A stretch of DNA of 64,000 nucleotides from an uncultured delta proteobacterium (GCA_963785235.1 CAWAUM010000001.1:576001-640000), one strand, 5' to 3'; counted from the stretch's first letter, positions 41,794-62,012 are shown. Numbers and translations are program-made. Notes: a model not told the origin generated them from the sequence alone.

Positions 41794-41802
41794 GTTGTGG
41801 TC

Positions 41803-42396: not shown

Positions 42397-42423
42397 AAGA
42401 GAATCCTCCTTACGTTTCTTTCA

Positions 42424-42880
42424 CTATGGCTTCTTGACTTCACCGAAGACATATTTGCTGATGAGTTCTGCGATATCCAGGGGCGGTTGCGTTTCGGTAA
42501 TGATACCTCCTGGTTTAAGGAGTGCACTTCCGCCTCCAGGGTCTATGCTGACATCCATATCGCCGATCAGTCCTTCCGTTTTAATGGAAGCGATGGCATT
42601 ATCATATATATTGATACCCTCATGAATCCTCAGCTCCACCACGCCCTTCTGGTTTTTCTGATCGATGGTAAGTCGCTCCACCCGTCCGACCTCAATGCCC
42701 GATATATACACGAGGCTCCCGACTCTCAGCCCTGTAACCGTGGTGAAACGGGCGAATAGGGAGTAGGAATTGTCGCCCATAAAAGGAAATGTGACCGAGC
42801 GTAACTGTCATATACCCTACGCAGAGCAGCCCGATAACGAGAAAAATGCCTACTGCAGTTTCAATCGAGTACTTTTTCAT
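42424..42880 (-). CDS. mlaD: MlaD (MCE) protein (frameshift near 42780)
   Basis: ETAVGIFL, GLRVGS.V.ISGIEVGRV, IKTEGLIGD. Confidence 0.88.
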
Positions 42881-42884
42881 GACG

Positions 42885-44139
42885 TTACTCCTTTGTGGAA
42901 CACAGAAGCCGGCCTATTTCCTTTTGCCCTGATTTTGCAGATTTGAAGACGGCTTCTATGTCGGTATTTGGTTGTCCTTGGGCCAACCCGGCGTGGATCG
43001 CTATCTCGATACATTCCCCTGAAACTCCTCGCCTGCGGCCCCTGATGCGAATGTCACGAATTCCCTGCTCCTGGAAATCCTTGATGAAAACCTTCAGGAT
43101 TTCTTCAGCCTCAGCCAGATCCGAATAGGGCAGGACCGTCACAAACTCATTGGCACCACGGCGCGTGGAAAATCCCCCGATGGCCCCGAAATGTTTATCA
43201 ATGTATACCCCCATGGCATGTAACACCTGCTGCGCCTCCTCGTAGCCCAGGCCTTCTACAATTTCATCGAGCATATACAGGGTAAAAATCGCCACGGTAT
43301 AGGTATTCCCGATAGTTTTTTGTTTCAGCTGAGCATGATACAAGACATTGAACTGCCTCCTGGAGTGCAGGCCCGATCAATTCATCCCGCAATCCTTCCA
43401 GGCTTTGGATGACCTCGTCTTTAAAAGGGTGATCGAATTTATCAAGCTCTTCCGGAGTGCCCTGAAAAACGATTTTTCTATCATAGAGGGCAAGAATACG
43501 GTTTGAGATGAAATACACATCGGGAATCTCGTGACTGACCAGGACCGCAGTAAAACCGAATCTCTTCTGGTACTGGGCGATCATGCTCAGGATTGCATTT
43601 TTTCGGACAGGGTCCTGCCCGGAAGTGGGTTCGTCAAAAAGCACGATCTGTGGATCTATGACCAGGGAGCGTGCCAGGGCCACACGCTTCTGCATACCGC
43701 CGGAGAGTTCGGAGGGAAACTTGTCGGCCGCATCCGACAACTCTGTCTGTTCGATTCTGGCCATCACCAGAGAGTCTATTTCAGCCTTGCCCTTTCTCGT
43801 TGTTTCGCGTAGCGGCAGCGCAATATTTTCATAAACGGTCATGGAGTCGAACAGGGCATTGTCTTGAAACATGTAGCTCATCCGGGCAAAGGAGGCGATC
43901 TTCTCGTGTTTTTTCATTTCAGCAAAGGGTTTGCCCCGGAAAAGGATGGTCCCTTCATCGGGGGTGAGCAGCCCGATGATATGCTTGAGCAGGACACTCT
44001 TGCCGCCGCCGCTCAGGCCGATGATGGTCGTGACCTGCCCCTCGAAGATCTGGAGGTTTACCCCCTCGAGGACTGTTTTGGATCCGAATCTCTTTGTGAC
44101 ATCCTTGAATTCGATCAGCGGCGTATCCATGGGGCTCAC
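42885..44139 (-). CDS. mlaF: MlaF-like ABC ATPase with C-terminal degenerate GGDEF-like domain (frameshift near 43375)
   Basis: GLSGGGKS, LSGGMQKR, FDEPT; then RDELIG... and in the next frame LGYEEAQQVL...STRRGANEFVTVLP...AGLAQG. Confidence 0.75.
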
Positions 44140-44983
44140 ATCAGAAGGGATGTCACGACATAGTCCGACACCAGAATGAGGACACAGGAGATCACGACGG
44201 CCGAGGTGGTGGCAAGCCCGACGGCCTTGGCCCCATGGCTATCCGTGCGCATATGCGCGAAATATCCCTGGTAACAGCAGACAGTGGAGACGATGAGAGC
44301 AAAAACGATTGCCTTGATGAAACCGTCGGTGATATCTTTCATGTCCAGACTGGTTTGAACACGATAAAAATAGGTTCCGGCATTCGCACCCAGAAGCAGT
44401 ACCCCGGAGATATACCCGCCGATTATGCCGATGAGATCAAACAGTGCGGTGAGCAGGGGAAAGCTGATGACTGCAGCGACAATCCTTGGACTGATGAGAT
44501 ACCCAATCGGGTTGATGCGCATGGTGTAAAGCGCGTCAATCTGCTCGGAGATACGCTGGATGCCTATCTCTGCACTGATGGCGGACCCTGCCCTGGCTGC
44601 AATCATGATGGCTGCGAGAACAGGCCCCAATTCCCTGACCAGGGTCAGGGATACAAGGACGCCGAGCGCTCCTTGAGCGCCGACTGAATTCAATGCATAA
44701 TACGTTTGGAGGCCTAGGACCATACCCGTAAACAGGCCGACGAGCATGATGATCAACATGGACCGTGCCCCGATGTAATAAATATGCTGGACAATCTTGG
44801 ATAGCTGCTTGTGCCTTATGATCTTCAGCAATGCCAGAATAAGGAAAATGCCCGCAGCACCTAAATTATCGATCCCATTGATCACCACCCTCCCGATAGC
44901 AGCAAATGGTCGCGACAAGATCGAAAAAAGGCGCCTTTCGGCTTCATTCTCAGGGGGGTCAGACTGTTTGAATCAAGAGCCAT
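44136..44983 (-). CDS. mlaE: MlaE ABC permease
   Basis: FTGMVLGLQ, RELGPVL, AEIG...EQIDAL; ORF track starts at 44918, probable true ATG at 44983 across a homopolymer indel. Confidence 0.9.
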
Positions 44984-45080
44984 GGTTAATATCCCATAAG
45001 ATCATAAAAAATCAGATAGATATGCCGAATACGGGAAAGTACCTTTCTTTGTGTAATGATAGGGAACATACAAATGTATG

Positions 45081-45228
45081 AGCAAATGGCCTGCCAATAG
45101 CAGAAAAAAGCTCATAATATTATAATCAACCTATGAAAACGGTTAGTTAAATGAATAGGACAGCAGCTCAGAAAAATGAACTGCTTCTTTTAGCCTCCAT
45201 ATTTGGTGGACCCTCAATATGTTGAGGG
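45081..45228 (-). promoter_or_regulatory. sigma54 promoter cassette copy 1 (heads the mla operon)
   Basis: Minus strand TTGGCAGGCCATTTGCT; upstream boxes CCTCCATATTTGGTGG and CCTCAATATGTTGAGG. Confidence 0.85.
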
Positions 45229-45253
45229 GTATCTCACGGGGGAATTCCTTCCT

Positions 45254-45568
45254 CTACTTCACGATCAGATTGTTCTTGATGGATTTAACCCCTTGGACGC
45301 TCGTTGCGATTTGGCCGGCTTTATCGACGGCCTTTTGAGAATTAACGAAGCCGCTCAATTGAACAGTGCCCTGGTAAGTTTCAACACTGATCTGGAATGA
45401 TTTGAGAAAATCATCTTCTGCAATCAGAGCTTTTATCTTGGTTGTGATGACTGAATCGTCAACGTATTCACCGGTGCTTTGATGTGTGGGTGTCGATGCA
45501 CAGCCCACAACAACGGTGATCAGCATAAGAAGCACTAAGCAGTTGATAACAATATTTCTATTTTTCAT
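45254..45568 (-). CDS. BON domain lipoprotein (OsmY-like)
   Basis: Lipobox VVGC, STGEYVDDSVITTKIKA, GTVQLSGFV, GVKSIKNNL. Confidence 0.9.
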   Translation of the reverse strand: MKNRNIVINCLVLLMLITVVVGCASTPTHQSTGEYVDDSVITTKIKALIAEDDFLKSFQISVETYQGTVQLSGFVNSQKAVDKAGQIATSVQGVKSIKNNLIVK

Positions 45569-45675
45569 AGCGATTAATCCTCCTTGGTATATTTGATTGT
45601 GATATGGTTCACTACGAGAAACTTTCTCCTGACAGTATCTTTTTCATAAAATCCTTCTTTTATCCTTCTGATGCT

Positions 45676-45900
45676 TTATTTTTTTGCTCCACCTCCAATG
45701 ATGACCAGCGCAATTCCGCCCGCAAGCGCAATGCCACCCAAAATGGGTGAAAACGGGATGGTTTTCTCAGTCTCTTGGGTAGCTTGTATGGGGCCAATAT
45801 CAATGATCTTCTCGCGGCTTGTGTAAGTAATGCCCTGGTAGGCAAGGGCCATTACTCCGAAGACGATTAATACAATTCCAGTAATCATTGCCGGCTTCAT
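45676..45900 (-). CDS. DUF3185-like small membrane protein
   Basis: GIVLIVFG..LAYQGITYTSREKIIDIGPIQAT...IPFSPILGG. Confidence 0.75.
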   Translation of the reverse strand: MKPAMITGIVLIVFGVMALAYQGITYTSREKIIDIGPIQATQETEKTIPFSPILGGIALAGGIALVIIGGGAKK

Positions 45901-45942
45901 AATAATTGATCTCCTTCCTGAACAGGTTTACGCGTCTCATCC

Positions 45943-46092
45943 CTATAATGGTCTTCGCCCCTGAATGACCCGGACCAGTACCACAACGATGGCAATGACC
46001 AGCAGGATATGTATGACCCCACCCATCGTGTAGCCACTGATCAATCCGAGAAGCCATAGAATCAAGAGAATCACACAGATGGTCCAAAGCAT
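45943..46092 (-). CDS. lmo0937-family small membrane protein (not in ORF track)
   Basis: AGGAG RBS; MLWTICVILLILWLLGLISGYTMGGVIHILLVIAIVVVLVRVIQGRRPL*. Confidence 0.88.
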   Translation of the reverse strand: MLWTICVILLILWLLGLISGYTMGGVIHILLVIAIVVVLVRVIQGRRPL

Positions 46093-46152
46093 GTTCGACT
46101 CCTTTCTGAGGACAGAATCTTTGCATTCAGTTTTATAGGAGAAGATTAACTG

Positions 46153-46458
46153 TTAAATCTCCTCCATACCTGCCAGATGGAGCCCGGAGTGGAACATCAT
46201 TTCATAGGGCCCTTCGAGAAGGTTCATCGCCCCCCGCAGCACCTTAAAATGTTCCGACTTCAGGTGGGTCATAAGGTTCTCCTGGGTATCCCATTCTTCA
46301 AGAAGAAAGAGTTGATTTTCATTTTCGATATTCTGGCAGATGTCGCAGTGCCGGCATCCATTCTCCATCCTTGTGGATCCGCACAGTGAAGCAATCGTCT
46401 GTGTCAACTCCAGACGCTTCTCAGAAAGGACATTCATTCGTATGATTACCAGGATCAT
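46153..46458 (-). CDS. ABM/putative quinol monooxygenase family protein
   Basis: TRMENGC...LLEEWDT...HLKSEHF. Confidence 0.8.
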   Translation of the reverse strand: MILVIIRMNVLSEKRLELTQTIASLCGSTRMENGCRHCDICQNIENENQLFLLEEWDTQENLMTHLKSEHFKVLRGAMNLLEGPYEMMFHSGLHLAGMEEI

Positions 46459-46473
46459 ATGATTGACTGTAAA

Positions 46474-46623
46474 AGCAAATGGTCTGCCAATTGCCGGAAG
46501 AAGATCATAATGTTGGAATCAATCCTTTAATAACATATTGTTAGATGAGTAAAAGAGAGCAGCAGAAAATATGAAATGCTTCGTTTAGCCTCAATATATG
46601 GTGGAACCTCAACATATTGAGGG
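46474..46623 (-). promoter_or_regulatory. sigma54 promoter cassette copy 2
   Basis: TTGGCAGACCATTTGCT; boxes CCTCAATATATGGTGG and CCTCAACATATTGAGG; TAACATATTGTTA IHF-like site. Confidence 0.85.
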
Positions 46624-46700
46624 AGACTCTTCATTGTCTCAATGCTTCCCTTCAAACACCTGACTAGGTTCCGTGATAGACGCGTCCACCTGGAAGTCCA

Positions 46701-47486
46701 TTAATTTTGGCGGCTTCCTTTTTGTATGAATACCGACTGGCTGTGAACGGGGAATGCATAGGGTTCAACGGTGTTGGGTTCAGAGAAACTGCTTGTTTGA
46801 TCCTCCAAGACCTGCTTCAATTTCTCCATGGATCTCATCTGGATTTGTCTGACACGTTCTCTGCTTACCCCAAGCTGAGTGCCAATCTCCTTGAGCGTCA
46901 TGGGTGGATCCGTTAAATAACGCTGTCTTAAGACAGATGCCTCTCTTTGGGAGAGGGAATTGAAGCAGTGATTGAGCAGAGATGAAATATTGTATGATGT
47001 CTGCTTGCCATAGAACAATTTTTCCGGGTCGTTACCATCGGTAAGGAAGTCAACCCACCGGTCCTTGTCGGGGTCATCATTTCCGAGATGTTCATCCAAT
47101 GATAACAAGTTTTTGGCATGACTCAGACTCCCTGTGTTTACCTTTGCACTCTTGCTCATGAAGGACATGATGAAGGCCTTGATCCACCAGGCCGCATAGT
47201 AAATGAATGGTATTCCGCGTTCAGGATCGAAGCGGTTCAGCGCTCGTATCATCCCAAGATTCCCTTCCTGAATAATATCAAGATAATTGTGGCCGCAATA
47301 AAAATACTTCCTGCTCACCTTCACCACAAACCTGAGGTTTGCTTGTATTATTTGCTGCCCGGCAGATTCATTGCCTTCCTGATATTGTCGTGCAAGTTCA
47401 TATTCTCTTTCATTGGAAAGAGTAGGGTAGTGCTGAATTTCCCGGTAATAATGTTGAAACTCATCATAATTATTAATAGTGCCCAT
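46701..47486 (-). CDS. Short sigma70-family (sigma32-like) sigma factor
   Basis: ANLRFVVKV, DIIQEGNLG, RFDPERG, YAAWWIKA, TLKEIG..LGVSRERVRQI. Confidence 0.88.
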   Translation of the reverse strand: MGTINNYDEFQHYYREIQHYPTLSNEREYELARQYQEGNESAGQQIIQANLRFVVKVSRKYFYCGHNYLDIIQEGNLGMIRALNRFDPERGIPFIYYAAWWIKAFIMSFMSKSAKVNTGSLSHAKNLLSLDEHLGNDDPDKDRWVDFLTDGNDPEKLFYGKQTSYNISSLLNHCFNSLSQREASVLRQRYLTDPPMTLKEIGTQLGVSRERVRQIQMRSMEKLKQVLEDQTSSFSEPNTVEPYAFPVHSQSVFIQKGSRQN

Positions 47487-47608
47487 AAATAGTCCTTCCC
47501 TCCTAAAATCACCTTGCCGTCTGGTGTGTTATCTGATGATGAACTCAAGTTAATAAATTGGCTCGCACTGCATAAGTAAATGAGCTATCTCCATTTATTC
47601 ACAGTAAT

Positions 47609-47758
47609 AGCAAAGGGCCTGCCAATAGCCGGAGGAAGATCATAAGCATGATTACATCCATTGATAACAGTTGGTTGGATGAATAATAGAGAACAGCAGG
47701 ATAACCTGAAATGATTCGTTTACCCTCAATATTTGGTGGACCCTCAACATATTGAGGG
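47609..47758 (-). promoter_or_regulatory. sigma54 promoter cassette copy 3
   Basis: TTGGCAGGCCCTTTGCT; boxes CCTCAATATTTGGTGG and CCTCAACATATTGAGG. Confidence 0.85.
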
Positions 47759-47879
47759 ATACTTTGGATATGGGACAAGTGGATATACAAAAAATGAAGT
47801 CCATGAAGAAGTTCAGAATTCTATCGCCAAGATCATGAAGAACTATTGTTTGGACGAGAATAGAGCTTATCTTCACAGG

Positions 47880-48668
47880 TCACTGACTCACATTTGTCAG
47901 TTCATCAGTGGTAGTGCTGGTTACTGTTTCAGTAGACGAGCCTATGGTGATTACGTCCATAGTGCTCGAGACTTTCTTGACAAATCCTACATTTTTGCCA
48001 TACCAGGAAAACCATGTGGAAGTTATAATCTCGGTTCCACCAACGAATGCGATGGTCATGGTAGAGGATTCCTGAGCCTTTACGGTTTCAAAAGTTCCTG
48101 CAGGCACGGTAACAGTCTCCATACCAAGGGCCTTGAGGGTATATTCCGTGGTCCTTGTACCGACCTTTATGCCACTGGCAGAATTAAAGAGATCCTCGGT
48201 GCTGGACTTGGAGTATACCACGCCCACAGTCCAGTCAGACGGTATGACGCCCGTAGAGGAACTGCTGTCAATATTCGTAAATACTATGGAATCATCACTG
48301 ATAACGATGCTTGAAGAACTGAGATAGGTGAACACTTTGTCTACGTCGTTTAACTCGATAGTTTCCACAATATATGGTCCTGAAATAGCTCCAGAATAGC
48401 CGTATTTACTGGGAATGGTCGCTTCGTGGGCATAGCTGTAGCCTAGGGTATATTCGCTTTGAATATTTTTTTCATCCGTAGTGTCCACCATGGTTTCTTT
48501 GAAGGTATAAACCTTAGTGATATCCCTGTTGGTATAATCATCCGAATGAATGATATTTGTTTCTGCTTCACTGGACCCACCACCACCTCCTCCGCCGCAG
48601 GCAAAAAGTATTATCCATACGAGGGCTGATAGTAGGAATCTACATTTTATAAGAGAAATTCTCATCAT
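47880..48668 (-). CDS. Hypothetical lipoprotein
   Basis: LFAC-GGGGGGG lipobox/linker; ETVTVPAGTFE and WYGKNVGFVK motifs of beta-rich exported proteins. Confidence 0.75.
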   Translation of the reverse strand: MMRISLIKCRFLLSALVWIILFACGGGGGGGSSEAETNIIHSDDYTNRDITKVYTFKETMVDTTDEKNIQSEYTLGYSYAHEATIPSKYGYSGAISGPYIVETIELNDVDKVFTYLSSSSIVISDDSIVFTNIDSSSSTGVIPSDWTVGVVYSKSSTEDLFNSASGIKVGTRTTEYTLKALGMETVTVPAGTFETVKAQESSTMTIAFVGGTEIITSTWFSWYGKNVGFVKKVSSTMDVITIGSSTETVTSTTTDELTNVSQ

Positions 48669-48720
48669 TTTTACCTCTCTCCCTTAGCCTAAACGAACCC
48701 CGGTTTCCCTTGAAGGGATA

Positions 48721-49029
48721 TCAGAATGGTGCGCTCCTGGATGTCAGCAGGTTGTTTAATCCCTTCGCATCAGTGTTTGTGAACGTGACTGCCATGCCTG
48801 TGTGGTTTTTCCAGGCAACATAACCTTCCACCCATATGACCTTGCCGAAATCTTCGGCATCGAGACTGGCCATCAGGTATCCTTTCACTTCAGGGGCATA
48901 TCCGGTCTGCACATACATGCCTCCTTTACTTATATCAATTACCCTTCCCATCTTATCGGGGTGGGCATCGTCACGGTAATCTACCCTCATGTTTACTCTT
49001 ACCCGTTTATTGTTTCTATTTTCCGACAT
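48721..49029 (-). CDS. PilZ domain protein
   Basis: RNNKR and DISKGG c-di-GMP-binding motifs. Confidence 0.85.
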   Translation of the reverse strand: MSENRNNKRVRVNMRVDYRDDAHPDKMGRVIDISKGGMYVQTGYAPEVKGYLMASLDAEDFGKVIWVEGYVAWKNHTGMAVTFTNTDAKGLNNLLTSRSAPF

Positions 49030-49080
49030 CCTTGACCTCCCTTACTCATTGCTTGATAGTCATCATGGTAGTGCTTCAGG

Positions 49081-49231
49081 AGCAAATGGCCTGCCAACAG
49101 ACTAGGGGGGGACAGAAAAATGGATTCAATTCATAATAACAGGTAGTTAGTTGAATATGAGGAGAGCAGCAGAAAAGTGAGAATTGACTCGCTTGGCCTC
49201 AATATTTGGTAGAACCTCAATATATTGAGGG
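49081..49231 (-). promoter_or_regulatory. sigma54 promoter cassette copy 4
   Basis: TTGGCAGGCCATTTGCT; boxes CCTCAATATTTGGTAG and perfect palindrome CCTCAATATATTGAGG. Confidence 0.85.
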
Positions 49232-49255
49232 ATGATTTGAAGGTATGTGTACTGT

Positions 49256-49402
49256 CTAATCTTTTTTTTCCTCCTGTCGGACTATGCCTAACTTATGCAT
49301 CCTCATTATTAAGGTACGCAAGTGGGGATCCAGACTCGTTGGGTCACTGTCCTTTCCTTCCATGTACCAGTTGGGTTCAGAAAGGATCTTATTAATTTTC
49401 AA
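49256..49402 (-). pseudogene. Decayed copy of the 3' end (HTH) of the sigma54 activator gene
   Basis: Reads KILSEPNWYMEGKDSDPTSLDPHLRTLIMRMHKLGIVRQEEKKD* versus activator KILSETKWCIEGKNKAAAILGLHPSTLRARMHKLGIVRQEIQETD*. Confidence 0.85.
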
Positions 49403-49443
49403 TAATCAATAATATGGATACTAGGCTACTATGCTGCCTGGTC

Positions 49444-49884
49444 TTATATTTTTCTCTCCAACCTTTTTTTAATATTCATAAGACCCAGATCAGCTTCTTG
49501 TCTGTTGCGTTCCATGATCACTTTCTCCACCGGCTTTCCCAATACCCGACTTGGGGTTGAATATTCTATATCCAATGCCAAGATAGTCGCATCACCATTA
49601 TTTTTGAGGTTATAAATCCATTTACTGTGTAGGCCATGTACGCCTTTGCTTTCCACGACTATCCTTTCCTCGGGGATATGTTCAATTTTTATGGATTCGC
49701 CATTAAATTTTATTTCACCTATCTTCCAAGACCATTCGTAATGAGTTCCGACCCCAGACCCGCTTACATCCTTAACCTCAATCATGTTCGTCAACCAATC
49801 AGGTTCATTCCAGGGATTATCAATATAAGCAAAAACCTTATTAACTGGCGCTTTGATCTCAATACTCTTGTGAATCCTGTGCAT
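49444..49884 (-). CDS. SRPBCC/polyketide cyclase family protein
   Basis: SIEIKAPVNKVFAYI...PDW...GVGT...L.NIKKRLE. Confidence 0.85.
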   Translation of the reverse strand: MHRIHKSIEIKAPVNKVFAYIDNPWNEPDWLTNMIEVKDVSGSGVGTHYEWSWKIGEIKFNGESIKIEHIPEERIVVESKGVHGLHSKWIYNLKNNGDATILALDIEYSTPSRVLGKPVEKVIMERNRQEADLGLMNIKKRLERKI

Positions 49885-49932
49885 ATGATATCCCTCCTTC
49901 TTTCGTTTCTAGGGTGCCAACCTGTGTTCATT

Positions 49933-49972
49933 AAAAAAGAAGCAGGGCTATTACTTGACTAACCCTGCTTCT
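49933..49972 (-). terminator. Intrinsic terminator
   Basis: AGAAGCAGGG/CCCTGCTTCT stem followed by a T run on the minus strand. Confidence 0.7.
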
Positions 49973-49985
49973 CCATACTCATCCT

Positions 49986-50414
49986 TTAGACAGTCTTGAT
50001 TTTTATCTTCTTTCCGAGTCCTGCAAGCCCGATTAGACCCGTTCCCAAAAGAAGCATGGTTGCAGGCTCAGGTACAGGCGCAGGATTATCGTTTTCATTC
50101 CCGTTCTGTTCAAGCCCGTAACTGCCTGTAGGACCAAGGTCAGCGATATTGAGATTACTCGGGAGTGAACCATTGAAAACAGAACTTCTCAGAACATTCG
50201 TCAGAACCCCTACCTCGGACCTAAGCGAGGTGCTGCTCACATCAAGGGCAGGCCAAGCCTGAGAGAGGTAGTTATTGACGAGGTTCTGATGCCGGGTGAT
50301 GGTCAGGCCCGTGTAGTAAAAGGCCCCATCACCAAGATTGATGATGCAGGCTCCAGCCTGAAAAGCGAAACCTAAAACCATCACGATTGACAGGATTAGT
50401 TTTGATAGTTTCAT
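49986..50414 (-). CDS. Small PEP-CTERM protein
   Basis: Signal peptide and VPEPATMLLLGTGLIGLAGLGKK sorting signal. Confidence 0.9.
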   Translation of the reverse strand: MKLSKLILSIVMVLGFAFQAGACIINLGDGAFYYTGLTITRHQNLVNNYLSQAWPALDVSSTSLRSEVGVLTNVLRSSVFNGSLPSNLNIADLGPTGSYGLEQNGNENDNPAPVPEPATMLLLGTGLIGLAGLGKKIKIKTV

Positions 50415-50454
50415 TTTTTTTGAACTCCTTTGTTTCCAGTACTTTTAAACTTTT

Positions 50455-50492
50455 AAAAAATGAGGGAGGGTTTATACAAGCCCCCTCCCTCA
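50455..50492 (-). terminator. Intrinsic terminator-like hairpin upstream of the PEP-CTERM gene
   Basis: TGAGGGAGGG...CCCTCCCTCA stem followed by TTTTTT on the minus strand. Confidence 0.65.
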
Positions 50493-50536
50493 AAAGGTAT
50501 GGGGGTTTTCGTTTTGGTTACTGTTTTTACGCATTT

Positions 50537-50899
50537 TTAGGGGGGATATTCTTGATGCAGTGTTGTGACTTTACTGTCAGCCTGTGTCTTGACCTTATAG
50601 ACAACCTTAATTCTTGAAGAGCTCGATATGACTGCATTGCTTTGGGCATCGTACTCCTGCTTTGTTATCCCTCTGACCCTGTCTATGACTCGATAATGAT
50701 TTGTCTGACTGCAAAATGGGCAGGTAACATCAATTGCAATAAGGTCATGACTCAAGTCGATCCCTTCCTTTTGCAGGTAGGACATCCCTGTTGAGTAATT
50801 GTCCTGGGACAGGAAAGACTCAACCGGAATGCTTTTATTGCATCCGGGGTAGAGACATTTGAAGATGTTGTAGTCGATAGTCCTTCCTAAACCATACAT
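50537..50899 (-). CDS. Hypothetical protein, possible zinc-binding
   Basis: AAGGAG RBS before MYGLGRT; CLYPGC and CPFC cysteine pairs. Confidence 0.6.
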   Translation of the reverse strand: MYGLGRTIDYNIFKCLYPGCNKSIPVESFLSQDNYSTGMSYLQKEGIDLSHDLIAIDVTCPFCSQTNHYRVIDRVRGITKQEYDAQSNAVISSSSRIKVVYKVKTQADSKVTTLHQEYPP

Positions 50900-50983
50900 A
50901 ATAATCTCCTTTGGGAGAGTCCTTATTAATTGTATCTTCATTCTCAACGTGTGCTTAATAAGAACTCTCAAACACTGAAAAAC

Positions 50984-51592
50984 TTAATTATCATATTCCT
51001 TATTCTGTTTATTTTTCTGACCTTTTTCAGGTTTTCCATGCTGAGCTTTATCTTGTTGTTGTGGCTGTGAGTGCTGTGATCGGACATTCCCGGATTGTGG
51101 TCGAGCATGCTGTTGTGGTCGATTATGGGGCTTCAAACCTTGGACACCCCAGGTATTTTGCTTCTCCCAATGTCTGTTCTTTTCCCAGTTGCTCCAGTTC
51201 CGTTGGACTTGCTCGTGGGGTATTCGCTGGTGGTTCCACCGATGTCCTGCCCAACGATGGTCCCTGTAGTTATTCCTCCAACCTGACGGTACTCTTCTAT
51301 AAAAGGAGGGTACCCTTTGATAGTGGGTCCAACCTGAGTCATAGTGGTGTGAGCGATACCAGTGTCCTTGCCACGGACGCCACCACCAGCCATTGTAGAA
51401 AAAGATGTCCACATCTACGTCAGGGGCAGCATAGACATCCGTCTCAGGTATGACTACCACCTCTAGAGGTCCTGAAGATATGATGAGTGGAGGCAGAGAA
51501 ATGCTAATGCCTACATCTACCGTTGCCATCGCTGAAATAGGAAATAAAAGTACCAACGCTAAAAGAATTGCTCCGAAAATTATCTTTTTCAT
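50984..51592 (-). CDS. Exported Trp/His/Gln-rich hypothetical protein
   Basis: Signal peptide, VDVGISISLPP, FFYNGWWWRPWQGHWYRS, low-complexity tail. Confidence 0.75.
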   Translation of the reverse strand: MKKIIFGAILLALVLLFPISAMATVDVGISISLPPLIISSGPLEVVVIPETDVYAAPDVDVDIFFYNGWWWRPWQGHWYRSHHYDSGWTHYQRVPSFYRRVPSGWRNNYRDHRWAGHRWNHQRIPHEQVQRNWSNWEKNRHWEKQNTWGVQGLKPHNRPQQHARPQSGNVRSQHSQPQQQDKAQHGKPEKGQKNKQNKEYDN

Positions 51593-51662
51593 TTTGTAGC
51601 CCGCTTTATCCATGCCCAATTTAACTCCATGTAACCTTGGCGTTGTAGTAATACTCTCCCTG

Positions 51663-52028
51663 TCAGAATACGTTCGTGCTGTTGCATATGCATCTTACTT
51701 CAACCCCGTTTTCAATCCTGGCAAGATTCTTCACGACGGTGTAATCCAATCCGGCTATTTCTCGTGCATTTCTTGCAGTCTTAGGAGGATTAGACTTGAA
51801 TACCGGATTATGCCACGGAGATGGTTCCTTCCCGGGATATGGTAGGTGAGTGGGTGGAACCCGTAGACCCAGCCTGCATAAGGATGCCTCACTCACTGTA
51901 GACCCATACGATGGATGATCTGCTGCAGTAATAGTGAAGAGCGCAAAGAAATCTCCCGATAAAGTTTCCTGCCACCCAATGAAATTCGCATCTGAATTCG
52001 AACCAGGTGTATTCATGTGTTCAGGCAT
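51663..52028 (-). CDS. Hypothetical protein
   Basis: GGAGG RBS before MPEHMN; first gene after cassette copy 5. Confidence 0.55.
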   Translation of the reverse strand: MPEHMNTPGSNSDANFIGWQETLSGDFFALFTITAADHPSYGSTVSEASLCRLGLRVPPTHLPYPGKEPSPWHNPVFKSNPPKTARNAREIAGLDYTVVKNLARIENGVEVRCICNSTNVF

Positions 52029-52077
52029 GTTAGCCTCCGTTTGCATCAAGTAATCCTAGTGGTGTAGGTGAGTAAAA

Positions 52078-52227
52078 AGCAAATAGCCTGCCAATAGCCG
52101 AAGGAAGATCAATAATATAGATTAAACAATTAATTACAAATTGTTAGGCGAAGAAGAGAGAGCCGCAGGAAAGTATGAAATGATCCATTTGACCTCAATA
52201 TTTGGTGGTTCCTCAGCATATTGAGGG
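52078..52227 (-). promoter_or_regulatory. sigma54 promoter cassette copy 5
   Basis: TTGGCAGGCTATTTGCT; boxes CCTCAATATTTGGTGG and CCTCAGCATATTGAGG. Confidence 0.85.
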
Positions 52228-52268
52228 ATAGGGCAATGGCCCCCCTGGAATCAATACCAAGTGATTTT

Positions 52269-53267
52269 TCATTTTCTTAGTTTCCATTTTCTTGTTAGTA
52301 GTTGGGCTGTTGCTATTTGGGAAGATGTCATTTTTTGAACAACCATATCCCTTATCTTGGCAGCTTCCTCATCTCCTTGTGCAGCAGCAAGGTTGGTCCA
52401 TATGTGCGCCCGAACAAAATCTCTTGGTACACCTTGGCCATATGCATACATAACCCCAAGGTGGTACTGGGCACTGGAATTGCCCTGATCGGCCGCTTTT
52501 CTGCACCACCTCATTGCCTCGGCATAGTCCTGTGGAACGCCTTGGCCATTTGCATACATAGCCCCAAGGTTGTACTGGGCACCGGCATGCCCCTGCTCGG
52601 CCGCCTTTCTGTACCACCTCGCAGCCTCGGTATCGTCTTGTATTACGCCTTGGCCATCTGCATACATAACCCCAAGGTTGTACTGAGCTCCGGCATTCCC
52701 CTGATCAGCCGCTTTCCTGAACCACCTCACCGCTTCTGAATAGTCCTGTACTACACCTTGTCCATTAAGATACATCCACCCAAGGGTGTACTGGGCATCG
52801 GCATCGCCCTGGTCAGCCGCCTTTCTATGCCACCTCATCGCCTCCATATAGTCCTGTGGTACACCTTGGCCATGTGCATACATACCCCCAAGGTTGTACT
52901 GGGCCTCGGCACGTCCCTGATCAGCCGCTTTCCAGTACCACCTGACCGCCTGGGCATAGTCCTGTGGAACACCTAGGCCATGTGCATACATGACCCCAAG
53001 ATTGTTTTGGGCACCGGCATGCCCCTGAACGGCCGCCTCCCTGTACCACCTCAATGCCTCGTCATCGTCTTTCGGAACACTTTGGCCATTAAAATACAAC
53101 CCTCCAAGGCTGTACTGGGCTCCGGCATCGCCTTTTTCTGCCCGTTTCATCAATTCATGTAATGGGGCTTTGTAGTCCCCACTATCGAAAGATTCATGGT
53201 CATCCCCTCTGGATATGTTAGGGAATATCAGGAGAAGCAAAGTTGTAAGAATAATTGCCATTTTCAT
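52269..53267 (-). CDS. Exported Sel1-like repeat protein
   Basis: Seven AQYNLGxMY..GQGVPQDY.EA.RWYRKAA repeats; signal peptide from MKMAIIL. Confidence 0.93.
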   Translation of the reverse strand: MKMAIILTTLLLLIFPNISRGDDHESFDSGDYKAPLHELMKRAEKGDAGAQYSLGGLYFNGQSVPKDDDEALRWYREAAVQGHAGAQNNLGVMYAHGLGVPQDYAQAVRWYWKAADQGRAEAQYNLGGMYAHGQGVPQDYMEAMRWHRKAADQGDADAQYTLGWMYLNGQGVVQDYSEAVRWFRKAADQGNAGAQYNLGVMYADGQGVIQDDTEAARWYRKAAEQGHAGAQYNLGAMYANGQGVPQDYAEAMRWCRKAADQGNSSAQYHLGVMYAYGQGVPRDFVRAHIWTNLAAAQGDEEAAKIRDMVVQKMTSSQIATAQLLTRKWKLRK

Positions 53268-53280
53268 GGAATTTTCCTCA

Positions 53281-54144
53281 TTAAGAAGGCAGCATCTGGT
53301 CAATGGAAGAAATGAGGGCCTTCTTCAGTTTGACCTTTGATTTATTCTCGATCTGCCGTACCCGTTCCTTGGATATGGCATACTGCCTTCCAAGGTCTTC
53401 CAATGTCGCAGGGGTTTCGGTCATGATACGATGCTGCGTGATATAACGTTCTCTTGGTGTGAGATTGTCCATGGCCTGGTCGATCTCCTTTTTCATAAAG
53501 GAGGTCTGCTGCGATTCAATGATACGGTCTTCGGGGCTCAACGTCGTATCAGCAAGAGAATCCAGGAAGGTGGTATTACTCCCGTATGTTATAGGGTTGT
53601 CCAGGGACTGGTCCCTGTTTGTCAGCCTCAATATGATCTCCTCGATCTGTTGGGGGTCGGCATTGAGGCGTAAGGAGAGGGCCTGGGACTGCTCGCTGAT
53701 ATCTTCACCTACGACTTCCTCTTCAGCCGTAATACGGTTGAGTCCATAAAACAGTTGTTTCTGCAGTCTGGTCGTACCGAGCTTGACCTGGGAGAAGAAC
53801 CGTAAGATATAATCATGGATCATTGCCTTGATCCACCATATTGCATAGGTCATGAGCCGATACCCTTTGTGCGGATTGAACTTCTTCACTGCGATCACCA
53901 GCCCTATAATCCCTTCCTGAATTGTATCTTCCAGGGGCAGGCCATACCCGGCATAATCCATGGCGATCCACACTACGTTTTTGAGATTGGCAGTTATGAG
54001 GCGCTCCGCAGCATCAAGATCGCCTTGATCCTTCAGAAGGACAGCGAATTTATATTCTACCTCTTTGGTGAGATGGGGAACGTGTTTGAACCGATCTATA
54101 AGTTCACCAACAGCATGATCGCGTATGACAGGATAAGGCATCAT
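53281..54144 (-). CDS. RpoH (sigma32)-like sigma factor
   Basis: DTIQEGIIGL, KKFNPHKGYRL.TYAIWWIKA, RpoH-box-like KLGTTRLQKQLFYGL, ISKERVRQIE. Confidence 0.88.
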   Translation of the reverse strand: MMPYPVIRDHAVGELIDRFKHVPHLTKEVEYKFAVLLKDQGDLDAAERLITANLKNVVWIAMDYAGYGLPLEDTIQEGIIGLVIAVKKFNPHKGYRLMTYAIWWIKAMIHDYILRFFSQVKLGTTRLQKQLFYGLNRITAEEEVVGEDISEQSQALSLRLNADPQQIEEIILRLTNRDQSLDNPITYGSNTTFLDSLADTTLSPEDRIIESQQTSFMKKEIDQAMDNLTPRERYITQHRIMTETPATLEDLGRQYAISKERVRQIENKSKVKLKKALISSIDQMLPS

Positions 54145-54353
54145 GAACGCATCCTTGTGAAGCCGGCGGATTCTGCAGGTCTGCTGGGATTAATGGAAAC
54201 GGTTGACTGAAGGGCTCGAGCAATTTTTTCTGCAACGATACGGGGCGACATATCTTTATCAGGATTGAAGACATCACTTCTTTGCTGTCCCCACCCCGGA
54301 TCCAGGAGTTCGGTCCTGATAACATCAAGAATATCTAACAGGTCTACGCTCAT
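54141..54353 (-). CDS. Small hypothetical protein coupled to the sigma gene
   Basis: 70 aa ORF whose stop overlaps the sigma start (ATGA); first ORF after cassette copy 6. Confidence 0.5.
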   Translation of the reverse strand: MSVDLLDILDVIRTELLDPGWGQQRSDVFNPDKDMSPRIVAEKIARALQSTVSINPSRPAESAGFTRMRS

Positions 54354-54439
54354 TTTTTTTGTATAACCTTATCCCTTTTTATTGGTGCTCACGGTGTCAA
54401 AAATAACTACTCGATAGTCATCATGACAGCTACTGTAAT

Positions 54440-54588
54440 AGCAAAGGGCCTGCCACTAGCCGAAGGAAGATCCGAAATCGGAATCGATCATTGATAACAT
54501 GTGGTTAGATAAAGCGGATAGGGAGCCAGTAAGGTGTGAAATGATTCATTCAGCCTCAATATTTGGTGGTACCTCAACATGTGGAGGG
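54440..54588 (-). promoter_or_regulatory. sigma54 promoter cassette copy 6
   Basis: GTGGCAGGCCCTTTGCT; boxes CCTCAATATTTGGTGG and CCTCAACATGTGGAGG. Confidence 0.83.
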
Positions 54589-54820
54589 ATTCTTTGAAGG
54601 GAGATGGGTATTCTCATCCGGGTTTTTTGTCTCCGACCGGACTACATCAAGCCGGCAAGAATGCCGAACCACATGAGAGTGGAGTACCACGGTATGGATT
54701 CAAATAAAAACATAGTAAGGAACCCCCTGTTTCCCGGTTTAACAAAGGGCCCAAGAGCGCTACGCATGGCGCTTCGCTCCTGGGCCACTTCGTCCGTCAG
54801 ATATGATTCTCTTTCCCAGC

Positions 54821-55744
54821 CTACTGCATGGGTGTTTGCGCGTCGCGTTGGATGATGATTTCGACGCGACGATTGTTGGCGCGACCCTCGGGGCTGGCGT
54901 TATCAGCAATTGGGGTTCCCTCGCCAAGCCCATGGGCCTTGATACGATCGGCCTGGTAGCCTCGCTCCACGAGATAGTTTCGAACTGCGTCTGCCCGGCG
55001 CTGCGACAGGTCGAGGTTGTAGCTGTCAGAGCCCTGTGAGTCGGTGTGTCCCTCGATGATGAGGTTGCGCTCACGGGTTGTGAGCAGTACATCGCTCACT
55101 TGGTCGAGTCGCGACCGCGCCGAGGGCAACAAGGTCGACTTGCCGGATGCGAAAAGCACACTCCCGGATAGGGTGATGATTATTCCGCGCGGGTCCTCCT
55201 TGACCGCGGCCAGCTTAGCCAGGGCTTCAGCCATTCGTTGCTCGGCATCGTTCTGCGCCGCCAGCGCTTCAGCCGCTCGTTGCTCGGCATCGGTCCGCGC
55301 CTTTTGCTCGTCGGAAAGCTGCTCTGCCGTCTTTTCGCCGCTGAGCTCAGAGGCCGCAAGCGCCGTCTGTGTATCGCTCAGGTCCTGCTTCGTCTTTGTA
55401 ACAATCTTGCCCTGCGTCGTTTGATAATCTTTACTCGATTGAGTCTGGCTCTTTTTCTCCATAGCGATGGAGGCCGTTGCTTCAGCTAACTCTGCCTTGC
55501 GCTGGGCGACATAGGCGAGGTCTCGCGTATGATACGAGTCGGGATTCTTCTGGAAGGATTGTTCCGCCTTGTCGAGCGCTTGTTTCGCCACATGCAACTC
55601 CGCAGGAGCGGCCTGGGCCGCAACGCCAGTGCTTGCGCGCTGGTATGCTCCGCGGGCGTTGACGAGCTCCTTCGGGGCGGTGGACGCACAGCCGGCGAAG
55701 AGCGTGACGACCGTGATGAGGATCAGATATTGTATCGTTTTCAT
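54821..55744 (-). CDS. DUF4398-OmpA family lipoprotein
   Basis: Lipobox FAGC, coiled coil, VLFASGKS, IEGHTDSQG, LSQRRA, NRRVEI. Confidence 0.9.
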   Translation of the reverse strand: MKTIQYLILITVVTLFAGCASTAPKELVNARGAYQRASTGVAAQAAPAELHVAKQALDKAEQSFQKNPDSYHTRDLAYVAQRKAELAEATASIAMEKKSQTQSSKDYQTTQGKIVTKTKQDLSDTQTALAASELSGEKTAEQLSDEQKARTDAEQRAAEALAAQNDAEQRMAEALAKLAAVKEDPRGIIITLSGSVLFASGKSTLLPSARSRLDQVSDVLLTTRERNLIIEGHTDSQGSDSYNLDLSQRRADAVRNYLVERGYQADRIKAHGLGEGTPIADNASPEGRANNRRVEIIIQRDAQTPMQ

Positions 55745-55764
55745 ATAATGCTCCTTTCTTTGGG

Positions 55765-56130
55765 TCATGGGTTGTCTTGCCGGAGTTTGCGCACACGCTC
55801 CAATGCTGCCCGGGCCTCCGATTTTTCGGCATCCTCGTGGGAGAGTGCGACAGCCAGCTCGGCATCGGCTTCGGACCGCAACAGCATAGACGCGGCCTCA
55901 TCCTTCTCGCCTTTCGCAGACAGCTTCTGGGCGAGTTCCAGTTCTTCTTTTGCCATTTGCAGATGAAGCGAGGCTTGCGGTACCTTGGCCGCCCCGACCT
56001 CCTCTGCGGCACGGATCCCCGACGTAGAAGCCTCGGAGCGCAGCGGGGCGTTTGCGCATCCCGCAGTGATGAGAGTGGCCATGACGGCCATGGAGAACAT
56101 CATAATTACGATCTTGGATAGGTGTCTCAT
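55765..56130 (-). CDS. DUF4398-like lipoprotein
   Basis: TAGC lipobox, IRAAEEVGA...A..HLQ.A.EEL...RSEADAELA. Confidence 0.8.
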   Translation of the reverse strand: MRHLSKIVIMMFSMAVMATLITAGCANAPLRSEASTSGIRAAEEVGAAKVPQASLHLQMAKEELELAQKLSAKGEKDEAASMLLRSEADAELAVALSHEDAEKSEARAALERVRKLRQDNP

Positions 56131-56263
56131 TGAATCCTCCTTTAGCTACTGATTTTCACTCATCCGAATTCAGTTGTTACGGATTGAGTCGATAGTGACG
56201 TATTCAAAAAGATGTTCCTTTGTTAGACGAATTCATTTTGAGTTCTCGTGCACGATAAGCACT

Positions 56264-56416
56264 TCATATCCGCCCCAGCAGCAGCAGAATGATCAAAATC
56301 AGAACAATCAATCCGAGTCCTCCGCTGGGATAGTATCCCCAGCTCTTACTGTGAGGCCAGGTTGGCAGTGCTCCGACCAAGATGAGAATCAAAATGACGA
56401 TCAGTATCGTACCCAT
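56264..56416 (-). CDS. DUF3309 family small membrane protein (not in ORF track)
   Basis: AGGAG RBS; MGTILIVILILILVGALPTWPHSKSWGYYPSGGLGLIVLILIILLLLGRI*. Confidence 0.9.
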   Translation of the reverse strand: MGTILIVILILILVGALPTWPHSKSWGYYPSGGLGLIVLILIILLLLGRI

Positions 56417-56495
56417 GTTTTTCTCCTTTTATAGCGTGAGCTATTGACCTTACCTCTGCCCTTCAACCTTCAAGTTGATTTTTAACAAGTTTAAG

Positions 56496-56644
56496 AGCAA
56501 ATGGCCTGCCAATAGCCAAAGAAGATCAGATAAATGCAATCAGTCATTAATAACTGATGGTTAGATGAAAAGGAGAGGGTGGTATAACGTGTACAAATGA
56601 TCCGTTGGGCCTCCGTATTTGGTGGAGCCTCAACATATTGAGGG
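56496..56644 (-). promoter_or_regulatory. sigma54 promoter cassette copy 7 (directly after the activator stop)
   Basis: TTGGCAGGCCATTTGCT; boxes CCTCCGTATTTGGTGG and CCTCAACATATTGAGG. Confidence 0.85.
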
Positions 56645-56668
56645 ATACTTGGTTGAAAGGTAGACAGC

Positions 56669-58649
<1,981 letters not shown>

Positions 58650-58659
58650 GTTTTCGCAC

Positions 58660-59004
58660 TCATGAATTCCTGGGTTTCAGATCGATGCCTACAAGAAACT
58701 TTTCCGTATCCGACATGTCGCCGATGAGCCTCCGCAGGGGCAGGGGGAGTTTCTTGATGAGCGTTGGGGCGGCAACAATCTGCTCTCCCTTGGCAAGATT
58801 GGGCTGCTGGTAGATGTCTATCACCTCGAGTTCGTAGCTCCCGGCCAGGTGTTTATCACAGAGTTTCTGGACATTGGCGATCGCCTGGGTCGACTTTGGG
58901 GTCATACCGGTAACATACAGCCGGAGAATGTACTTTGACGGGTCTCTCTTGGTTGCCGCTTTTTCGAATTCCGCAGTGCTCGTTTTCACTCTTTTCATAT
59001 CCAT
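58660..59004 (-). CDS. kaiB: KaiB family protein
   Basis: [42 protein letters not shown]. Confidence 0.93.
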
Positions 59005-59039
59005 CTCTGGTTCACCTTAAATTGATTCTTTATCATCCG

Positions 59040-59366
59040 TCAGACAGGACGAATGTCGAGTCCCACCAGCACACGTTCTGTGTTGGCCAGATCACCGATA
59101 ATCTTTTTAATCGGTTCAGGAAGCTTCCTCACCAGTGTCGGTATGGCAATAATCTGGTCCCCTTTAGCAAGCTGGGGGTTCTTTAAAAGGTCTATCACCT
59201 CAATGCGGTATTTCCCGGCGAGGTGCTCTTCGCAGATCTTCTTTAAATTAGCAAAGGCCGTTATGGATTTCTGGGTCTGACCGGCTACATATAACCGGAG
59301 GTTCCAGATTTCATCCGTAGCAGCGGTCTTTGATTTCTTCCCTTTTTCTGGTGAGACAGTTTTCAC
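59040..59366 (-). CDS. kaiB: KaiB family protein
   Basis: [43 protein letters not shown]. Confidence 0.94.
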
Positions 59367-59367
59367 C

Positions 59368-61116: not shown

Positions 61117-61455
61117 CTCCTGGCATTATTACTAAGAATGTTATTATAGCAAAAAGCCATTTTCTGGCAATAAAAATAATTCAGTAATATCAGAGTGATA
61201 TTTCCCTGCATCAAAGATAAATCTTCCCTCGGTCTCTTCAAGGATCCACCTGGAAGGTTTCATATGATCACTATCGTATCCGTGCAATGAACCACCTCCA
61301 CAAGCCGGCATGCATAAGACTGCTCAGGGTCGTTATAAAAGCAAACATGACGAGAAATAGTGCAAGCCATTTCAGGTTCAGGAGAGAAATGCTTTGAAGG
61401 TCAAATTTCACCGTCTACTCCTTTGGGGTAAATATATATGCATAAGGTGACAGAG

Positions 61456-61773: not shown

Positions 61774-62012
61774 GAAGACATCTCCTTTGCCGTCTAGAAC
61801 TACACCAGGAATTTCATGGAGTCCTTGTTTTTGGCACCATATATATAATAATCATCAGATTTTCCCAGACAAGGGTGCATGATTACAATGAAAACATGGA
61901 GTCGGTACTTGTCAAATACCAACGCTGTTACTACTAAGCGTATCTGATGGATAGATGGTTAAGCTCAATTTATAGACATAGCCGGCAGAGTTTGCGGAAA
62001 GGAGATCGGATC

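Follow-up and report, generated by a model that had tools for sequence, protein, structure and literature searches.

Fixed-geometry sigma-54 promoter cassettes, their candidate activators and a probable stress regulon in an uncultured delta proteobacterium

A 64-kb stretch of DNA from an uncultured delta proteobacterium (GCA_963785235.1, CAWAUM010000001.1:576001-640000; the window, whose numbering is used below unless a contig is named) contains seven copies of a cassette of approximately 160 bp. Together with four further copies elsewhere in the genome, these very probably represent enhancer-dependent sigma-54 promoters of fixed geometry that are served by dedicated PAS-AAA+ activators, control an 11-promoter stress regulon and have multiplied by duplication of the whole unit. 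The genome under study (G000) is a 3.91-Mb assembly that is 93% complete; other G numbers denote relatives and L numbers denote fetched loci.

All seven copies lie on the minus strand in the same orientation and were recovered by a search for repeats, an alignment of all seven and a profile search with nhmmer, at the positions assigned to them by the first-pass annotation of this DNA. Each comprises two 16-bp boxes (box1, which is distal, and box2), a central A/T-rich element and a -24/-12 element, beyond which a transcription start site (TSS) can be predicted. Cassette 7 (c56496, 56491-56650), located directly 3' of the stop codon (56669) of an activator gene, has box1 at 56628-56643, box2 at 56610-56625, TGGCAGGCCATTTGC at 56497-56511 and a predicted TSS at ~56485. 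In the same order, these elements are found at 54572-54587, 54554-54569, 54441-54455 and ~54429 in cassette 6 (c54440, 54435-54594); at 52211-52226, 52193-52208, 52079-52093 and ~52067 in cassette 5 (c52078, 52075-52231); at 49215-49230, 49197-49212, 49082-49096 and ~49070 in cassette 4 (c49081, 49077-49236); and at 47742-47757, 47724-47739, 47610-47624 and ~47598 in cassette 3 (c47609, 47604-47764). Cassette 2 (c46474, 46469-46629) has them at 46607-46622, 46589-46604, 46475-46489 and ~46463, the predicted TSS being only ~5 nt 5' of the start codon of an ABM-domain gene, and cassette 1 (c45081, 45076-45232) at 45212-45227, 45194-45209, 45082-45096 and ~45070.

The core motif TGGCAG-N5-TTGC, reported initially for every copy, does occur in all seven and nowhere else in the window; shuffled sequences are expected to contain 0.26 occurrences, and none of 100 shuffles reached seven. 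The 34-bp double box is likewise present seven times against an expectation of 0.00. Across the assembly, the cassette profile identified exactly 11 full-length copies (E <= 6e-24), the next-best matches (E >= 0.19) being the palindromic box read in reverse. The four copies outside the window are at C1:369326-369484(-), C2:135374-135528(+), C2:139055-139210(+) and C5:128207-128362(+), such that the proposed physical clustering of the regulon holds for the seven window copies and does not extend to the other four. All 11 are co-oriented with the next gene.

With the C of the -12 GC taken as position -12, box1 is centred near -150 and box2 near -132 in all seven window copies, the centres being 18 bp apart, and the conserved A/T-rich element lies near -70, between the boxes and the core promoter. 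The activator sites fall within the range of 80-200 bp upstream that is characteristic of enhancer-dependent sigma-54 promoters. Box1 is a 16-bp palindrome, CCTCAATATnTTGAGG, box2 is a conserved but asymmetric 16-bp sequence, CCACCAAATATTGAGG, and the -24/-12 element, TTGGCAGGCCATTTGC, is exact in all seven. Its GG and GC keep the exact N10 spacing, and it is close to the sigma-54 consensus TGGCAC-N5-TTGCW. The far edge of box1 lies 145-148 bp from the -12 C, a value that differs from the 146-149 bp given earlier by counting convention alone. The partly conserved linker words described at that time are present in the consensus, and the central TAACNNNTDGTTA ascribed to each copy is exact in four of the seven, the remaining three departing from it by one or two bases.

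A broader comparison included 118 non-identical cassettes from this genome, its relatives and public assemblies. The resulting consensus sequences are CCTCaatAT.ttGAGG for box1, CCaCcAaATattGAGG for box2 and TTGGCAggc.atTTGC for the core promoter, and the asymmetry of box2 is conserved, with A at position 3 in 97 copies and C at position 5 in 101. Mean pairwise identity in the profile-fitted alignment is 82-88% for the boxes, 77% for the -24/-12 element, 61% for the central element and 54-58% for the linkers. Among 30 copies from seven genomes, 28 have 94-100 nt between the end of box2 and TGGC, the other two having matched no search pattern, and 100 of the 118 cassettes have a co-oriented open reading frame (ORF) that starts between -25 and +450 nt. 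When compared with the Escherichia coli consensus for integration host factor (IHF), WATCAANNNNTTR, the central element agrees at seven or more of nine positions in 75 of the 118 copies and at eight or more in 17. Eight genes of the HU/IHF family are present in the genome, as is rpoN (PF04552 match at G000:C11:186555-187031, 208.8 bits, within a 463-aa open frame). The originally envisaged architecture of upstream activating sequence, IHF site and -24/-12 element is therefore upheld for the sigma-54 core and the upstream boxes, whereas the assignment to IHF is weak.

The activator gene at the head of the array (56669-58649, minus strand) encodes a coiled coil, a PAS domain, a PAS-like domain, an AAA+ domain with the GAFTGA motif, a lid and a Fis-type helix-turn-helix (HTH). 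Matches to PF00158, AAA_lid_14 and HTH_8 were obtained, and both the Walker A motif (GETGTGKE) and GAFTGA are visible in the alignment. Together with the intact -24/-12 element in 7/7 copies and the presence of rpoN, these domains support the view that each cassette is a sigma-54 promoter module that carries its own enhancer and serves the genes 3' of it. In the assembly the gene is broken into two ORFs (57246-58649 and 56669-57286) by a single base near 57269 that paralogues and orthologues lack. Single extra bases at 39617, 43378 and 57269 each break an ORF in comparison with a 92%-identical relative or with paralogues; that at 39617 leaves an acetyl-CoA hydrolase of 434 aa rather than 623 aa, and that at 43378 splits an mlaF-GGDEF-like fusion. 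The pattern suggests assembly indel errors rather than three pseudogenes, and since two other single extra bases break ORFs in the same assembly, the interruption at 57269 is more likely to be an assembly error than a sign of a pseudogene. Among contigs from four DNA runs aligned at this locus, the 57269 base is absent in one X2 and one X6 contig and retained in an X1 contig (depth about 4); the contigs compared may derive from relatives or paralogues, and X1 may be the source sample.

Two intact paralogues of the activator, each of 553 aa, are encoded at C1:369505-371166 and C2:133691-135352, and a cassette lies directly 3' of each. They are 82% identical over the C-terminal 205 aa, with a near-identical HTH, and carry N-terminal sensors that differ from that of the window activator. 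The proposal that a single activator controls all of the blocks does not stand, as the genome has three paralogues with near-identical HTH regions, each followed by a cassette. The genome contains 35 candidate activator regions besides, 16 of which match at E <= 1e-40. Among cassette-linked activators the HTH is near-invariant and differs from that of the genome's other activators, although the recognition helix of one of the latter, C5:554227, is similar. The N-termini of cassette-linked activators vary, with several PAS types and one receiver domain represented. Variable N-termini joined to a fixed HTH are what would be expected if the HTH reads the invariant boxes.

The tie between the cassettes and the activator encoded at the head of the array, suggested from the window itself, is borne out both by co-occurrence and by the position of the activator stop codon, ~20 nt 5' of a cassette in all genomes that carry the activator. 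A scan of 41 relatives placed cassettes in seven genomes. Matches of at least 72% identity to the C-terminal 205 aa of the activator were confined to six of these (G000, G003 with two, G004, G005, G011 and G024), and every match is followed, after ~20-25 nt, by a cassette on the same strand. In the seventh genome, G001, the cassette is located on an 11.7-kb contig of a 310-contig assembly. Among 122 genomes of the class, nine have cassettes and seven have the activator, all seven being cassette-positive; the two cassette-positive genomes in which no activator was detected, G001 and G054, are both fragmented assemblies. None of the 113 cassette-negative genomes of the class has the activator family, seven of them having a paralogue of 60-61%. 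Outside the window, activator and cassette are adjacent at 22 distinct loci across many assemblies.

Beyond these genomes, a breadth scan of one genome per species used a pattern consisting of box2, a gap of 90-110 nt and the -24/-12 element, and matched at least 135 stretches. Eighty loci were fetched, from 61 assemblies by table count. Despite the gap tolerance, the match length is 132-137 nt in all but one of them, and 79 of the 80 match the full-length cassette profile, L127 probably being a chance match. Scanning this and other genomes, as had been proposed with the first-pass annotation, gave 11 copies here and the fixed-geometry module in at least 60 assemblies of Thermodesulfobacteriota; the sigma-54 module is an old architecture and no local novelty. 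Submitter labels include Syntrophaceae, Smithellaceae, Smithella, Syntrophus, Desulfatiglandales, Desulfobacteraceae, Desulfomonilia, Syntrophorhabdus and similar, a small number of bins being plainly mislabelled. At five loci (L054, L083, L091, L093 and L114) two cassettes diverge from boxes that are shared or directly adjacent, as would be expected of an enhancer that serves two promoters. The pair at L114 drives genes for a lysine-2,3-aminomutase-like protein and, in the opposite direction, a GNAT acetyltransferase; these two enzymes form the route to the osmolyte N-epsilon-acetyl-beta-lysine.

The sequences that flank the cassettes retain traces of how the copies arose. Sixteen distinct fragments of the activator C-terminus, 10-80 aa in length, were found 5' of cassettes that lack an activator of their own, most of them truncated or containing stop codons. 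In the window, an HTH fossil of ~130 nt (49271-49399, minus strand; 43 aa, 58% identical, with helix 2 destroyed) lies 5' of cassette 4, and a 3'-end fossil of ~40 nt lies just 5' of c54440, extending to ~54640. These two and their counterparts at 14 copies in relatives bear out the suggestion that the regulon was assembled from a repeated module. The possibility that such fragments act as stand-alone HTH decoys was considered and rejected for the window, the fragment at 49271-49399 lacking helix 2 and most of the 16 being truncated or interrupted; the fragments at L052 (80 aa) and L098 (58 aa) retain a whole HTH and could still be decoys of this kind.

On the other side of the cassette, the ABM start codon is situated 12-16 nt past the -12 C in 24 of 25 ABM-bearing cassettes and 21 nt past it in L101; the close spacing can be seen at 46458-46476 in the window and at L002, L034, L039, L052 and other loci. 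At a distance of 12-16 nt, the sigma-54 transcript of this gene should have a leader of 1-5 nt or none at all. The ABM start (its first ~14 codons), intact or decayed, is also found behind cassettes that have since come to serve different genes, as in the CsbD unit; in L037 it contains a stop codon. Fossils on both sides of the cassette point to an ancestral unit made up of the activator end, the cassette and the ABM start, an order still present in many assemblies, and this unit appears therefore to have been copied with variable borders in front of new genes.

Paralogous cassettes of this genome are 60-79% identical to each other, whereas the six with a clear counterpart in the closest relative, G011, are 90-97% identical to it (flanks ~92%). 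Because orthologues are so much more alike than paralogues, the copies are judged from these comparisons to be old and to have been retained, spacing included, by selection. Within G003 the copies have a mean identity of 80%, compared with 69% in G000, which suggests some later copying or conversion in G003. Two cassettes of G011, both at L042, are altered: the one before mlaE (7174-7485) is interrupted by an insertion or duplication of ~100 nt, and the one before ABM (9510-9576) retains model positions 96-162 only, without boxes. Contigs from other metagenomes aligned at 45000-57000 join the ABM start or the activator end to different cassettes (for example 46458 to 52075 and 46450 to 56496); these joints, which have short sides and were aligned at 90% likeness, fit other gene orders in relatives.

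The genes placed downstream of the cassettes, all on the minus strand in the window, are diverse. The c56496 unit begins with a DUF3309 small membrane protein of 50 aa (56264-56416), followed by a DUF4398 lipoprotein (55765-56130) and a DUF4398-OmpA protein (54821-55768). The c54440 unit encodes a 70-aa ORF (54141-54353), a sigma factor of the RpoH/sigma-32 subfamily (53281-54144; NF005143, 250 bits against a cut-off of 241) and a Sel1-repeat protein (52269-53303), in which a 108-bp tandem periodicity (52320-53159, six copies) is the Sel1 repeat of the 344-aa product, an ordinary coding repeat. The 70-aa ORF belongs to no family and has a counterpart in G011 (L043:3963-4220); its stop codon overlaps the ATG of the sigma-32-like gene, and it could be a coupled regulator of that factor. 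Five small ORFs make up the c52078 unit (49444-52049): one of 128 aa that resembles the N-terminus of DUF932 proteins of relatives, two of 211 and 144 aa, a PEP-CTERM protein and an SRPBCC/polyketide-cyclase-like protein. A PilZ protein (48721-49029) and a DUF3108-like lipoprotein (47880-48668) form the c49081 unit, and the c47609 unit encodes a second sigma-70-family factor of 261 aa (46701-47486), RpoH/RpoS-like and below curated cut-offs. The c46474 unit consists of the ABM-domain protein (46153-46458), an ORF without a family (45800-46126) and a BON lipoprotein (45254-45568), a paralogue of which (61456-61773, minus strand) lies just 5' of kaiC without a cassette. Finally, c45081 precedes mlaE, mlaF, mlaD, mlaC and mlaA (40834-44918), with mlaF being part of a GGDEF-like fusion in relatives that is split here at 43378.

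Outside the window, the C2_135k unit encodes CsbD, a YflT-like protein, a 132-aa ORF and a DUF748 protein; the C2_139k unit an ABM paralogue and a triple-BON protein; the C5_128k unit a PKD lipoprotein and a GDSL lipase; and the C1_369k unit a hybrid PAS kinase and a CheB-CheR fusion. In the last of these, 3' of the second activator paralogue (L001, G000:C1, 3815-7304), the kinase has a PAS-HisKA-HATPase-receiver arrangement and the fusion is accompanied by a coiled-coil kinase-like ORF. Pfam searches covered the first ORF 3' of cassettes in relatives and of the four non-window cassettes of G000 (93 ORFs), along with 60 of 109 upstream ORFs, those omitted being ORFs already annotated, most under ~100 aa and those already in the downstream set. 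Recurrent families among the 93 are ABM (12), BON (4), LTXXQ (4), DUF932 (4), CsbD (3), DUF4398 (3), sigma-70 (2) and YGGT (2), and single cases include a PLD-type enzyme, PAP2, Band 7, GGDEF and the divergent lysine-2,3-aminomutase/GNAT pair. Judging by family names, the annotated targets would constitute a general-stress, osmotic and envelope regulon.

These elements can be combined into a probable mechanism. The Fis-type HTH of the dedicated PAS-AAA+ activator family would bind the two boxes, on which the activator would oligomerise before looping to the RpoN-holoenzyme and opening the promoter, with the A/T-rich element near -70 acting as a bending site. The three paralogous activators, one of which ends a kaiC-kaiB-kaiB operon, would feed different sensory inputs into the same boxes. 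The 11 promoters would in turn drive a general-stress and envelope regulon that comprises DUF3309, DUF4398/OmpA, CsbD, YflT-like, BON/OsmY-like, ABM, PilZ and Mla proteins, the hybrid kinase and two sigma-70-family factors, the latter implying a second transcriptional tier. Growth of the regulon would have occurred by duplication of the activator 3' end, the cassette and the first ABM codons before new genes. Several points weigh against this interpretation. The box spacing of 18 bp is shorter than the spacings familiar from NtrC-type enhancers, and the central element resembles the IHF consensus only loosely. If the frameshift in the window activator were real, that copy would be dead and the paralogues alone could act. 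The identity figures come from an alignment fitted to a profile of the same family, which inflates linker identity, and the co-occurrence counts come from related, non-independent genomes and overstate independence. In addition, no Pfam family could be assigned to 34 of the 93 ORFs searched 3' of cassettes, such that the stress interpretation is founded on the annotated part.

A short repeat of ~160 bp with 11 copies in intergenic DNA also brings to mind a mobile or selfish element, comparable to miniature inverted-repeat transposable elements (MITEs), repetitive extragenic palindromic (REP) sequences or Correia elements, that was spread by transposition and happens to contain promoter-like words. 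The patchy distribution (9 of 122 genomes), the greater likeness of the copies in G003 and the metagenome contigs that, over short sides at 90% likeness, join different units at cassette borders would all suit such an element. It is nevertheless very improbable, as terminal inverted repeats are lacking: only the boxes pair, besides chance pairs that differ between copies, and the ends of the consensus are non-complementary. A total of 11 copies in 3.9 Mb, each aimed at a downstream gene, is low for a mobile repeat, and the random orientation that the first-pass annotation regarded as the mark of a MITE-like or non-coding RNA element is not observed. The left flanks are variable-length fragments of the activator gene rather than short direct repeats (no systematic search for target-site duplications was made), and a variable left border of this kind is the mark of segmental duplication, not of transposition. 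Old copies that have kept their spacing to within a few bases, and strict co-occurrence with one activator family, argue likewise for selected promoters. A structured RNA, whether a small RNA, an element in the 3' untranslated region of the preceding gene or a terminator whose hairpin is the palindrome, is harder still to credit. The palindrome of box1, perfect or nearly so, could fold into a hairpin, and the cassettes closely follow upstream stop codons; however, there is no Rfam match at E <= 1 in 42000-62000, the covariation term from RNAalifold is +0.38 with compensatory change in one of 17 pairs, the asymmetry of box2 is conserved and the palindrome has no T-run after it. Substitutions across the 118 copies disrupt the three inner pairs of the palindrome 36, 26 and 42 times but compensate for one another in only 7, 1 and 7 cases, and pairs broken far more often than compensated indicate a protein site rather than a hairpin.

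It is also conceivable, if unlikely, that the cassettes are genuine sigma-54 promoters whose boxes are bound by some other protein, either a repressor or a different activator, with the neighbouring activator being a target or a bystander. In G110 a cassette lies 5' of the kaiC-kaiB-kaiB-activator operon, which shows that the activator operon can be among the targets; the 35 candidate activator regions of the genome provide potential alternatives, and C5:554227, with its similar recognition helix, is one of them. On the other hand, adjacency of activator and cassette recurs at the 22 loci outside the window, cassettes occur in no genome without the activator family save the two fragmented assemblies, and the HTH stays fixed while the N-termini vary. 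Promoters addressed by the cassette-linked activators themselves account better for this combination.

The window activator is the last gene of an apparent kaiC-kaiB-kaiB-activator operon on the minus strand, in which kaiC (59368-61116) encodes a 582-aa protein with two KaiC domains and a C-terminal coiled-coil extension, and two kaiB-like genes (59040-59366, 108 aa; 58660-59004, 114 aa) follow. A strong sigma-70-like promoter (61143-61170, minus strand; TTGCCA-16-TATAAT with TG, 11/12) lies 5' of kaiC, and the genome profile search found no cassette upstream of this gene. The product scores 739.4 bits with NF006799 against a cut-off of 408, and its closest solved structure is PDB 8dba (8dba_A; E 8e-196, residues 13-550), with the alignment running through the C-terminal extension; 8dba is presumably the hourglass KaiC of Rhodobacter sphaeroides. 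On this sequence basis the window KaiC is assigned to the double-domain, C-terminally extended, KaiA-independent type. No second KaiC with two domains was found in the genome, and KaiA (PF07688) was not found in this 93% complete assembly.

Genes for KaiB precede the activator at eight loci (the window, L034, L190, L105, L118, L075, L071 and L123), and these are exactly the activators whose N-terminus aligns with that of the window activator from residue 1; approximately nine other loci with enough flank have a different N-terminus and no kaiB. The N-terminal 175 aa of the activator have 1233 homologues at E <= 1e-10. The best 120 of the 1233 are mostly 659-aa activators with generic names, and six of them are HisKA_3 kinases with an N-terminus that is 80-86% identical (P0064, P0065, P0066, P0077, P0104 and P0118), which points to one sensor module swapped between two output types. 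G110, of a different genus, has seven cassettes in 15 kb around its kaiC-kaiB-kaiB-activator genes; one of them, at L190 (G110:C81, 13536-13693), is positioned 5' of kaiC, where the window has the sigma-70-like promoter instead, and would make the operon autoregulated in that genus. From gene order and domain sharing, the Kai proteins may gate the activator. The complete chain, in which a KaiA-less KaiC-KaiB-KaiB device of anaerobic syntroph-type bacteria would gate a PAS sigma-54 activator through the conserved N-terminal module and so fire fixed-geometry cassettes that constitute a general stress response with two secondary sigma factors, the cassettes integrating two or more further sensor-activators and the regulon having been built by repeated copying of the unit, is offered tentatively and is rather doubtful as a whole.

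Promoters of the NtrC, DctD and NifA type combine tandem activator sites, a bend introduced by IHF and a -24/-12 element. The cassettes resemble them in the GG-N10-GC core, in two adjacent dyad sites more than 100 bp upstream with an A/T-rich element between, and in an AAA+ activator with GAFTGA and a Fis-type HTH encoded beside a target. They differ in that the whole unit of ~160 bp and its spacing are conserved across at least 60 assemblies, where usually the binding sites alone are, in the separation of box centres by 18 bp and in the three paralogous activators that have one HTH in common. General stress regulons include those of sigma-B in Bacillus, RpoS, and EcfG in Alphaproteobacteria. 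The present targets are similar in content, with CsbD, YflT-like, BON/OsmY-like and OmpA-like proteins, small membrane proteins and a secondary sigma factor, but control here would lie with sigma-54 and an activator, whereas those systems use an alternative sigma-70-family factor with partner switching. In purple bacteria, kaiBC operons are followed by a PAS histidine kinase, and kaiBC of Legionella has been linked to stress resistance. The window shares with such KaiA-independent systems a KaiC that passes NF006799 and aligns with 8dba, an adjacent kaiB, the lack of a detectable KaiA and an activator sensor module that is also found on HisKA_3 kinases; it departs from them in having two kaiB genes followed by a sigma-54 activator, not a kinase, and a candidate direct regulon of 11 promoters that is readable from DNA.

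Promoter reuse, including "putative mobile promoters", is a general phenomenon of prokaryotes already in print (PMC3575422). The common feature is highly similar promoter DNA 5' of non-homologous genes in one genome, which rewires their regulation, and the 11 homologous cassettes indeed precede unrelated first genes in a single genome. By comparison, the copies here comprise a full enhancer and sigma-54 promoter, have a source locus named by hitch-hiking activator and ABM fragments, and are old and under selection, as opposed to recent near-identical repeats. In the searched passages of the Desulfovibrio vulgaris sigma-54 regulome (PMC4641369), BON, CsbD, OmpA and KaiC have no occurrences, which suggests, as far as those passages reach, that the present regulon is absent from that catalogue. 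Judged by titles, abstracts and passages, the literature searched describes neither this activator and its boxes nor a link between Kai proteins and sigma-54. The kind of system is known; what is new is the fixed module, the two-sided fossil record of its copying, the several sensors on one enhancer and the Kai context.

For the uncultured Thermodesulfobacteriota, in which to our knowledge almost no regulation is known, these cassettes would provide a nearly complete wiring of a stress regulon, from activator through enhancer and promoter to targets, that can be read from sequence. They also show with unusual clarity how a regulon can grow when an entire enhancer-promoter unit is copied, the source locus being identifiable from molecular fossils, and the 34-bp double box with its spacing is a compact search key by which the regulon may be annotated in metagenomes. 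For KaiBC homologues outside cyanobacteria, the locus offers a candidate output, in that the gene after kaiB encodes an activator whose likely sites and targets can be listed.

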